From IMG/VR virus record IMGVR_UViG_2713896798_000017: a stretch of DNA of 46,614 nt; one strand, 5' to 3'. The position numbers are program-made. Shown one piece after another: positions 21,001 to 24,000 of the stretch. Each line of letters begins with the position of its first letter. The first letter of the stretch is position 1. This DNA is from a virus. Its lineage: Duplodnaviria; Heunggongvirae; Uroviricota; Caudoviricetes.

Positions 21001-24000
21001 CTCTCCGTGTTTAACGCGCAGTGCCATGGTGGCAGTGCTGCAGATGTGCCGTGGATTTGTGGTGACACGACGTATTACTGGAAAAATACATACGCTACCC
21101 AGTACGACACCGTGTACGGCGGGTATAAAAACAGGGAGAGTGAGGGCGTTTATTTTGTGCCCTTCATGACAGACGGTAACGGCGTCAATACCGCCACTAA
21201 CGCGCCGGCAGAAGATCCGGATATTCCGGCATCAGGATATTACGGTGCGGCATCGAGAACGAATGGAAACCAGGTATCATCAAACCGCCCGACACATTTC
21301 AGTTCATGGGCGCGCAGGAGCATTATTCCGGATCGTCTGGCAACCGCTATTCTGAACGCAGCCGGGCGCACCTCAGCCTTCATCAGTGGTAAGGCACCGG
21401 AAATCAAACCCTCGCCCGGCGGCAACACGCCATCGGGTCCGTCTGCAGATACGTCCGTTCGCACAATCTCCCTGCTGCCGGCAGCCGGAGAGGCTGCTGC
21501 GCAGGGCTGGAGCATTAAGGATGGCGGAATTCAGTTGTCAGATGGTGTATTTAAGATCACCAAGCAGAGCAATAAAACCTGGTCCCTGACGCATCCGGTG
21601 GATGACGCAATTACCCTGCTGACACAGGGCGGCAGACTGACCTGTAAGTTCCGCCTGTCAGGCGCACTGACCAACAATCAGTTCGGGCTGGGGATTTATC
21701 TGTATACGGATGCTCCCGTTCCTGATGGTGTGGCGATGACGGGTACCGGTAATCCGTTCCTGATGTCGTACTTCACTCAGACCACTGACGGCAGAGTGAA
21801 TCTGATGCATCACAGGAAAGCCGGAAACACGAAGCTGGGGGAGTTCGGCGATTACGGTAACGACTGGCAGACGCTGGAGCTGGTGTTCACCGCCGGCAGT
21901 GCCACGGTTACTCCGAAACTGAATGGAGTGGCTGGCCCGGCATTCCAGGTTATAAAAGACAGTCTGACACTGGGACTGAATGCGCTGACGCTGACGGATG
22001 TTACAAAAAATGCAGCGTATGGCGTTGAGATAGAAAGTCTGGTGCTGGAGATAAATGCACCGGCAGCATAATAAAAAAAGAGCCAGCGACTGACCTGAAA
22101 GAAGACGCTGGCTAAAAGGCCTTATATGTTTGTAGAGACTTATTTTTCACAGACAGCAATGATGCCTGTCAATATATTATCAATATGCGGATTGTTTCAG
22201 TTACAGATGCTTTATTAAGGAAAAAAACAGCCAGCACTGACTTTCGGTGGAGAGGTGCTGGCTCAGAAGGATAGTTGGATTTCACATGATACTTATGCCT
22301 GGCGGTATATTTTCTGACAGACAGTGACGGGTGTTGTCAAGATATTGTGTCATTTATAACCTGAATCAGGGGGTGGCCGGAATGTTATCTGGCATTTTTA
22401 GCAGAGCCTGAATGCCATAATCACGGCTCCCGGAGTTGGCCGTCAGTGGGTGACACTGGCGGCTTTTTTGTTTTTCTTTACTTTCATTTTCTGTCGGCGG
22501 TGACGGAGACATACATCAGATGGAAAAAATCACAACAGGTGTGTCATACACCACGTCAGCGGTGGGGACGGGATACTGGTTACTGCAGCTGCTGGACAAA
22601 GTCTCTCCGTCCCAGTGGGTGGCAATAGGTGTGCTGGGAAGTCTGCTGTTTGGCCTGCTGACGTATCTGACTAACCTGTATTTCAAAATCAGAGAGGACC
22701 GTCGTAAGGTGGCGCGGGGAGAGTAGTCGATGAATAAACAATACGAACTGGTTGTAAAATGAATATTTCTAACTGAAAAAACGTTCCATGAGGTAAGAAA
22801 AGGTCACAGGCAATCAATAACAGGACGTGATGAAAGACCCTTGCATTTGTGCGCTTTCTCTTTAGATAGCAGCAGATACTGAAAATCTGAGTTGTCGGGG
22901 AGTCAGGGATACAGCTGTGCAAGAGTTGGTCATTGTGATTCCATTGAAATCCTGTATGCCATGAAGGGCAGGATTTTATGGCTACCTGAGCTTTGGTGAT
23001 AGTAAGTTGAAAATTCGCATTTTTTGCTGACATGCGTAACGAGAATCCCATAAGCAGGGAGGACTTAATTCTTCATTAACCCATGCGTTGATATTATGTT
23101 TCAGCCGTTGAAGCATCAGCGGTGTTAATGTTGTGGTAATAATATCCAGCGTTTTATGTGAGATCTTACCGTAAGGGTCTGCAAGAATGCTGCTTGTTGC
23201 TTCGTTATTATCTGCCATCAGAAGAAGTAACTCTGATTTAACGTTTTCTGTCATTAGTTGTAAAAATCTTCTGCGCAAACTTTCTTTACTGTTCATTTAT
23301 ATGGCTTCATTTGTTGTAATCTGCTGCGTCTCAAGGGATATGTTTATGAGAGCGACCATGAGTGTTGGATTATATACCTAACATATCAAGGGATTAGAAA
23401 TCGATAAATCCCCATGAACGAAAAAATAAAATACGGCCTGTCGGCTGCCGTTCTGGCGCTGATTGGTGCAGGTGCTTCTGCGCCTGAAATCCTCGACCAG
23501 TTTCTGGATGAAAAGGAAGGTAACCACACCACGGCATACCGTGATGGTGCGGGGATCTGGACCATCTGCCGTGGTGCCATTCTGGTGGATGGTAAGCCTG
23601 TTATTCCTGGCATGAAGCTGTCAAAGGAAAAATGCGACCGGGTTAATGCCATCGAACGTGACAAGGCGCTGGCATGGGTGGAGAAAAACATCAAAGTGCC
23701 GCTGACCGAACCCCAGAAAGCGGGGATCGCGTCATTCTGTCCGTATAACATTGGCCCCGGTAAGTGTTTCCCGTCGACGTTTTATAAACGAATTAATGCA
23801 GGTGATCGAAAAGGTGCCTGCGAAGCGATTCGCTGGTGGATTAAGGACGGTGGCAGAGACTGCCGTATCCGTTCAAATAATTGCTACGGTCAGGTCTCAC
23901 GGCGTGACCAGGAGAGCGCGCTGGCGTGCTGGGACATCGACAGATAGCAGAATATTTTCCTGAAAAATGACGTTGGCCAACGCGGGTGGATAACACGAAA

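Follow-up and report, generated by a model that had tools for sequence, protein, structure and literature searches.

What separates the holin gene S from the endolysin gene R in this Escherichia coli prophage, and does the backward open reading frame (ORF) lying between them encode a protein? The prophage is IMG/VR virus record IMGVR_UViG_2713896798_000017, a stretch of 46,614 nucleotides (hereafter the window), and the region under study is its S-R spacer. We find that the 687 bp of the spacer are the leftover of an accessory module that occupies a variable slot in a phage-21-type lysis cassette. The backward ORF, termed orf104 for its 104 amino acids (aa), is by comparison with its homologues a genuine protein gene that has been under purifying selection, even in a lineage whose neighbouring gene is dead. 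Its biological role is addressed with less certainty, and we hold with slightly better than even confidence that orf104 is a moron-like accessory unit with a candidate promoter and with putative expression and function.

A phage-21-type lysis cassette

S ends at position 22726 and R starts at 23414, which leaves a spacer of 687 bp (22727-23413) with a guanine-plus-cytosine (GC) content of 0.39 as compared to 0.531 in S, 0.532 in R and 0.51 in the window as a whole. These values agree with the extent (about 690 bp) and low GC content that a first-pass annotation had given for the spacer, as does the presence of a minus-strand, 104-aa ORF at 22982-23296 (Table 1). That annotation had also assumed a lambda-type S/R cassette, and this assumption has to be abandoned. 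The S product matches PF04971 with an expectation value (E) of 1.3e-32 as well as the holin families phrog_9876/phrog_20, and is annotated as a class II holin family protein (WP_000411814.1). The R product matches PF00959 (E 3.2e-24) and the endolysin family phrog_7, and has an Ala/Gly-rich, weakly hydrophobic N-terminus, MNEKIKYGLSAAVLALIGAGASAPE, that resembles those of signal-arrest-release (SAR) endolysins. Because S belongs to PF04971 and R to PF00959 with a SAR-like N-terminus, the cassette is assigned by its domain matches to the phage-21 type, composed of a pinholin and a SAR endolysin, with SAR function being a prediction.

DNA homology to phages H-19B, YYZ-2008 and Stx2 phage 86 extends from S to position 22765, where it is lost, and is picked up again from about 23376-23379 onward into R. 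The resumption of homology at this point means that the 35 bp preceding the R start codon are part of R and not of the insert. The spacer is composed of three parts: a dead plus-strand gene (22730-22975), orf104 (22982-23296) and the 117 bp from which orf104 and R start in opposite directions. The earlier description of the spacer as one insert is correct in that it is extra DNA relative to 933W and VT2-Sakai, in which R directly follows S, but the extra DNA is not uniform, as a dead gene has left remnants at 22730-22762 and 22812-22975 that make up about a third of the "insert".

Table 1. Features in and around the S-R spacer of the window
Feature	Coordinates	Strand	Remarks
SASA-family sialate esterase gene	20221-22071	+	upstream of holin
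S, 68-aa class II holin of phage-21 type (pinholin family)	22520-22726	+	left edge of spacer
Stub of DUF1327/YdfR-type late gene, 10 codons (MNKQYELVVK) then stop	22730-22762	+	found by tblastn
Decayed C-terminal domain ("MidC") of the same late-strand gene	22812-22975	+	in-frame stops, stop codon lost
8-bp inverted repeat, AAATCCTG / CAGGATTT, 14-nt loop	22947-22976		just past orf104 stop
orf104, intact 104-aa gene, ATG start, phrog_1853 family	22982-23296	-	homology and selection
Inverted repeat TCTCA-N13-TGAGA	23329-23351	-	presumed orf104 5' leader; conserved in window clade
Candidate -10 hexamer TATAAT for orf104	23369-23374	-	no recognisable -35
R-proximal block TAACATATCAAGGGATTAGAAATCGATAAATCCCC	23379-23413	+	homologous in orf104-less H-19B and YYZ-2008, also in phage 86
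R, SAR-type phage lysozyme, 177 aa	23414-23947	+	right edge of spacer
Rz spanin	24283-24750	+	PF03245, E 8.4e-49

Evidence that orf104 is a protein gene

An ATG-initiated ORF of this length arises in 2.5% of first-order Markov simulations of 687 bp, so that length by itself is merely suggestive and the case for a gene has to be made from comparative evidence. Residues 1-102 of orf104 match positions 57-158 of the 159-position phrog_1853 profile with an E of 3.5e-47; the 56 N-terminal profile positions have nothing to match, since a stop codon in front of the window ORF closes it off. Homologues at 48-79% identity retain the length (104-106 aa), the first Met and the invariant residues, which in family alignments are E17, K20, P41, G43, W72, E76, Q91, K92 and L99, all of them present in the window protein. 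Pairwise Nei-Gojobori comparisons with six homologues give ratios of nonsynonymous to synonymous substitution rates (dN/dS) of 0.13-0.39. It is this combination of phrog_1853 homology and purifying selection that more firmly excludes a chance ORF. Neither of the two outcomes that the first-pass annotation had listed as telling against a gene applies: the spacer is not a conserved noncoding region, and the reading frame of orf104 is conserved. Its suggestion of a small accessory gene is therefore upheld, with a conserved frame under selection and a function that is putative.

Selection was additionally assessed within the window-type gene order by comparing the window with the three most diverged alleles of this type, at loci L058, L059 and L061. 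All three share with the window, at 92-94% identity, the 255-bp stretch that holds the remnants of the dead neighbour, and therefore split from the window lineage after that neighbour had decayed. Between the window and these alleles orf104 exhibits 5-7 synonymous and 2-4 nonsynonymous differences, with a ratio of nonsynonymous to synonymous proportions (pN/pS) of 0.11-0.15, and its nucleotide divergence is 2.2-3.5% as compared to 5.9-7.8% in the adjoining remnant stretch. The low pN/pS after loss of the neighbour indicates that selection on the orf104 protein persisted without its partner.

The RefSeq annotation from the Prokaryotic Genome Annotation Pipeline (PGAP) calls a 90-aa protein that begins at Met15 (WP_000138558.1), while the original annotation of strain EDL933 has the 104-aa form, described as an "unknown protein encoded within prophage CP-933O". 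The 104-aa start is probably to be preferred over the 90-aa start, as the 14 N-terminal residues are conserved and ribosome-binding sites are located before Met1 in two other clades, where GAGGA-type Shine-Dalgarno sequences are found (the phage 86 clade and locus L074).

A dead gene on the late strand

Between S and orf104 lie traces of a second gene, oriented with the late operon, that by translated comparisons persists only as a 10-codon stub and a C-terminal remnant riddled with stops. In tblastn searches, 8 of the 10 stub residues are identical to those that open (MKKKYELVVK...) the YdfR-family products in YYZ-2008 and phage 86, and a DUF1327/YdfR-family gene comes after S in H-19B, YYZ-2008 and phage 86. 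No intact DUF1327 (PF07041) gene was matched among the spacer ORFs scanned, with only the 10 codons being left. Downstream of the stub, tblastn aligns the 213-aa middle protein of Stx2_12E129 to 22812-22934 with 39% identity over 41 aa and two in-frame stops (E 2e-6), and the terminal motif LKGRI is matched by MKGRI at 22961-22975. In relatives the late-strand gene consists of a DUF1327/YdfR or a coiled-coil N-terminus fused to a conserved MidC domain, and several prophage loci, as well as phage 86 and Stx2_12E129, have this domain in "middle" genes of 189-268 aa. Among window-type loci, the 255 bp from S to orf104 that hold both remnants (22727-22981) diverge at a rate near the synonymous rate of orf104. 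An overlapping minus-strand ORF of 120 aa (22689-23051) was dismissed, as it matches no family and overlaps the pseudogene remnant.

The S-R junction as a cargo slot

The S-R junction had been regarded as an unusual site for cargo, a view that does not survive a survey of the junction. Among 356 deposited phages sharing S and R, a sample of 60 spaced evenly along the ranking fell into three classes: R directly after S (933W, VT2-Sakai and most Stx2a phages), a DUF1327/YdfR gene in a gap of about 400 bp (H-19B, YYZ-2008 and many Shiga toxin (Stx) phages of the Stx1a and Stx2c types), and larger mosaic genes in the other phages of the sample. The S-R junction of phage-21-type cassettes is consequently a recurrent, recombination-prone cargo slot that holds YdfR or mosaic genes, and the window carries one of its less common fillings. 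YdfR/DUF1327 genes, of which the Qin prophage of E. coli K-12 also has one, share this holin-SAR endolysin slot with orf104, but they run in the late direction and are transcribed together with the lysis genes, whereas orf104 is on the opposite strand and is unrelated in sequence.

None of the 356 deposited phages covers at least 80% of a query composed of S, the spacer and the start of R, the matches being to S and R alone. The spacer is carried by 631 of 5426 complete E. coli genomes (about 12%), nearly all at 99% identity or more and in up to three copies per genome. Carriers include O157:H7, O145, O103 and O111 strains, and orf104 also occurs in prophages of the LT-II (type II heat-labile enterotoxin) kind and in Salmonella prophages.

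Homologues and their gene order

Gene order around orf104 was compared among IMG/VR loci, named phages and Salmonella prophages (L-numbers designate individual loci), which together exhibit seven architectures. In the first, represented by phage 86, S is followed by a YdfR-MidC fusion gene, inverted orf104 and R. The second, found in Stx2_12E129 and many prophages, has a coiled-coil-MidC gene in the middle position; the third is the window type with a dead middle gene; and the fourth, in prophages with a heat-labile-enterotoxin A-chain gene upstream of the holin gene, has inverted orf104 between S and R with no middle gene. In the fifth (L074) a YdfR-like gene, a MidC gene and inverted orf104 precede an HP1-type holin gene and R. 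The sixth, from Salmonella, reads a 262-aa YdfR-MidC homologue, inverted orf104, a holin-like gene, S, R and Rz, and the seventh (L062) has another holin gene followed by inverted orf104. Throughout all loci and architectures examined, orf104 lies among the lysis genes and is oriented backward to the late operon. The IMG/VR loci have a near-universal order of Rz and R on one strand, orf104 on the other and then S, with exceptions at contig ends, at insertions and where the holin differs. Two apparently non-lysis contexts (L012 and L014) are really decayed lysis cassettes with remnants of R.

orf104 is usually convergent with the MidC gene, with the 3' ends of the two genes overlapping or lying within about 12 bp of each other. 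Each gene also occurs without the other, as orf104 lacks a middle gene in LT-II-type prophages (L068, L069 and L072) and Stx2_95 has a 329-aa DUF1327-MidC gene without orf104. As orf104 lies upstream of the holin gene in Salmonella and in L074, the gene can do without a position within the S-R junction.

The nearest relatives from named phages are phage 86 orf6 (Stx2-86_gp06, YP_794053.1) and the hypothetical protein BCI98957.1 of Stx2a phage Stx2_12E129, both 104 aa and 53% identical to orf104. They occupy the same place in the same orientation, backward between a P21-type holin gene and a lysozyme gene, and are likewise uncharacterised. They differ from the window in being accompanied by an intact convergent middle gene (of 268 or 213 aa) and in having a GC-rich hairpin upstream in place of the TATAAT block. 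The hairpin, CGYCAGYG-N6-CACTGGCG followed by T-rich sequence, is located 55-75 nt upstream of the orf104 homologues (L004 3395-3425; L074 about 2925-2955; L092 3927-3948), is conserved in the phage 86 clade, L074 and Salmonella, and is missing from the window clade. It may be a 5' leader structure or an upstream terminator.

Several observations on the surroundings of the homologues stand apart from these comparisons. In L069 the gene directly upstream of the holin gene (3883-4674, minus strand) encodes a heat-labile enterotoxin A chain (PF01375, E 1.7e-102), a slot that corresponds to the position of stx in Stx phages. A HicA/HicB toxin-antitoxin pair lies just upstream of the YdfR-MidC/orf104 module in L092 (5260-5894), L074 (about 4600-5237) and L094 (5587-6224), the loci with this pair being Salmonella prophages and L074. 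In E. coli O157:H7 PV15-279 (L001 4688-6349) the lysozyme gene beside an identical spacer is cut by an IS3-family insertion, and this prophage copy is defective because its terminase and portal genes are frameshifted.

The predicted orf104 product

The orf104 product has a calculated mass of 12.1 kDa, a basic isoelectric point of 9.3 and a grand average of hydropathy of -0.33. A hydropathy analysis found no long hydrophobic stretch, no dedicated transmembrane predictor being run. An AlphaFold2 model built from a shallow alignment has five helices, a mean predicted local distance difference test score of 84.7 and a predicted template modelling score of 0.74, by which the product is modelled as a soluble five-helix protein.

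The product matched no family in Pfam, NCBIfam or PADLOC, and a profile search of the PDB returned noise alone (best E 0.039, to a designed protein). Foldseek comparison of the model with the PDB and BFVD gave best E values of about 1.4-2.4. A profile search of 1.84 billion representative proteins defined a family of 20 clusters at 50% identity, none of which is annotated, and a search of 5.8 billion proteins added Salmonella enterica homologues at 40-45% identity with no annotated domain. All family members found are from Enterobacteriaceae. A scan of species-representative genome contigs yielded zero confirmed orf104 loci, the prophage presumably being missing from such genomes. Thus, orf104 has no detectable relative of characterised function.

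A moron-like accessory unit and its alternatives

Several features fit the reading of orf104 as a separate, moron-like transcription unit. It is missing in close relatives that share both flanking genes (933W, and H-19B/YYZ-2008 with ydfR alone), and its GC content of 0.384 is lower than that of its flanks (0.38 versus 0.53). The bor gene of phage lambda is a moron on the opposite strand beside the lysis genes that is expressed from the prophage, with a mapped promoter and an outer-membrane lipoprotein product of known phenotype. Like bor and other lambdoid morons, orf104 is an extra gene of lower GC content among late genes, in an orientation that demands a promoter of its own; unlike bor, it has at most a candidate promoter and encodes a predicted soluble helical protein.

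As orf104 is antisense to the Q-dependent late transcript, it would need its own promoter. Its transcript probably starts in the AT-rich region shared with R, at the conserved TATAAT (23374-23369, minus strand). The block surrounding this hexamer, TATATAAT, is kept in 7 of 8 diverged upstream regions, the remaining one, L006, having TATACAAT. Expression of orf104 would then probably fall outside the late programme, for instance in a lysogen, and the antiterminated late transcript would read through the spacer into R. As no catalytic or DNA-binding signature is present, the small helical product most likely works by binding another protein.

A number of observations weigh against this reading. 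A sigma-70 consensus scan recognised no promoter upstream of orf104, where there is no -35 element, and the same scan found no promoter for the homologues in L004 and L092. The Shine-Dalgarno sequence before orf104 is weak in the window clade. No convincing terminator was found for orf104; the inverted repeat just past its stop is weak at best, folding no better than shuffled sequences (z of -1.0 on the minus and -1.2 on the plus strand) and having no U-tract on the minus strand. A literature search found no paper on orf104, WP_000138558 or phrog_1853, nor any expression data. Most copies of the exact allele belong to near-clonal O157-type prophages, so that intactness among them is weak evidence when taken alone. 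Additionally, the constant place of orf104 beside the lysis genes could indicate a lysis-related role instead of that of a generic moron. An RNA element as the business of the spacer was considered and rejected, as nothing in Rfam 15 matched at the gathering score or at an E of up to 1, and the hairpins, including the TCTCA-N13-TGAGA repeat (fold z -0.45), are no better than shuffles.

The lysis-related role could be that of a safety catch or regulator: orf104 would hold the lysis genes in check outside the late programme by being transcribed antisense to them, by its protein or by both, for instance by blocking read-through into the SAR endolysin gene, or else it would tune the timing of lysis. 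Leaky expression of SAR endolysins, whose export needs no holin, is known from the R21 family to be dangerous. Read-through is made plausible by promoters and small RNA (sRNA) genes upstream of S. The gene is constantly inverted, mostly directly upstream of R and otherwise upstream of a holin-R unit (L074 and the Salmonella locus L092), and it accompanies lysis genes across three holin types (P21 S, the HP1-type in L074 and another in L062), although such fixed synteny may reflect common descent. A role at the RNA level alone would leave a dN/dS of 0.1-0.4 unexplained, and most phages with the same S and R do without orf104, which makes it dispensable for the cassette. Accessory regulators of lysis are known in the antiholins S107, S21-71, P1 LydB and T4 RI. 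A further example is the releasin of phage Mu for a SAR endolysin (PMC9239132). orf104 resembles these in being a small protein encoded in or beside a lysis cassette, but they are cotranscribed with the lysis genes and belong to the membrane or periplasm, whereas orf104 is antisense and has no evident transmembrane segment or signal sequence. Neither in sequence nor in fold was orf104 found to resemble antiholins or SAR endolysin regulators. We regard a function as lysis regulator as unlikely on this balance.

The usual companionship with a convergent gene raises the prospect of a two-gene module, with orf104 acting as inhibitor, immunity factor or regulator of the YdfR/coiled-coil-MidC gene and being left as an orphan in the window. 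Five of the seven architectures contain the partner, the 3' ends of the two genes are tightly placed as described above, and the pair is shared by E. coli and Salmonella (the partner being 27% and orf104 40-45% identical), also where it lies upstream of the holin gene. This reading has to contend with the loci in which each gene is found alone and with purifying selection on orf104 that outlasts the death of the partner. The convergent layout also differs from a toxin-antitoxin operon, and neither orf104 nor the middle proteins match a toxin or antitoxin family in Pfam, NCBIfam or PADLOC. We give such a module little credence. A type II toxin-antitoxin pair was rejected as the genes are convergent, and not co-oriented, in every locus and show no recognisable toxin or antitoxin domains.

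The two preceding proposals can be combined, such that orf104 and the YdfR/MidC gene would form a lysis-associated module of enterobacterial lambdoid phages in which orf104, expressed in the lysogen, is a catch on prophage lysis until induction; this combination seems to us decidedly unlikely. In this equally slim scenario the catch, working by its protein, by antisense transcription or by both, would act on a late accessory lysis protein or on the SAR endolysin, which needs no holin, and in the window it would have outlived its late-strand partner.

The weakest alternative, that orf104 is a silent relic which is no longer expressed or useful here and is intact only because the lineage is young, could draw on the missing consensus promoter and terminator, the weak ribosome-binding site, the neighbour that is already a pseudogene, the 99-100% identity of most copies and the frameshifted or truncated family variants in databases (P0001, P0006 and P0011-P0013), but it is very improbable given that the modest divergence of orf104 is mostly synonymous as compared to that of the remnant and that every family-invariant residue is kept. 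The moron-like accessory unit therefore remains the reading that we favour.

Other features of the prophage

The window is an apparently complete lambdoid prophage without stx, with genes in the order integrase, Q, three transfer RNAs (tRNAs), esterase, lysis genes, PerC-family gene, terminase, tail genes, sodC, J and lom. The gap between the esterase and holin genes (22072-22519) has two similar GC-rich hairpins at about 22080-22115 and 22232-22268 and a strong hairpin at 22438-22464 that, with its T-run, resembles a terminator, and it matched no Rfam model. The prophage sRNAs PasA and PasC have been located exactly between a sialate esterase and a holin gene (preprint 10.64898/2026.05.13.724894). 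Elsewhere in the prophage, matches at the Rfam gathering score are an STnc100 sRNA just upstream of the esterase gene (19808-19998), a sok antitoxin RNA beside hokD (13246-13420), a DicF RNA (4435-4486, minus strand) and the three tRNAs (19482-19728), which RefSeq annotates as Ile, Arg and Arg.

The gap between R and Rz (23948-24282) contains a terminator-like hairpin with a 15-bp stem and a T-run at 24037-24069, and a small ORF (24129-24281) of 50 aa that belongs to phrog_4493, has a hydrophobic C-terminal segment and is called by PGAP as 37 aa. YYZ-2008 and phage 86 have an ant-type antirepressor gene in this gap instead. Just downstream of Rz lies a gene for a PerC-family activator (25216-25530, plus strand; PF06069, E 3.8e-44), coincidentally also of 104 aa, and a patch of low GC content (about 0.29-0.38 over 24700-25200) accompanies it.

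Implications

These results correct the annotation of the locus in that the inverted ORF is real and is probably 104 aa, not the 90 aa called by PGAP. What it represents is an uncharacterised phage gene of the accessory or moron kind that occupies an already known variable slot and is annotated as hypothetical in hundreds of genomes, and if it is just another moron then the finding is a routine one. The gene nevertheless sits beside toxin-linked lysis genes in prophages of about 12% of complete E. coli genomes. Should it be true that orf104 modulates expression of the SAR endolysin or lysis of the prophage, this would bear on the release of toxin from Stx and LT-II prophages.

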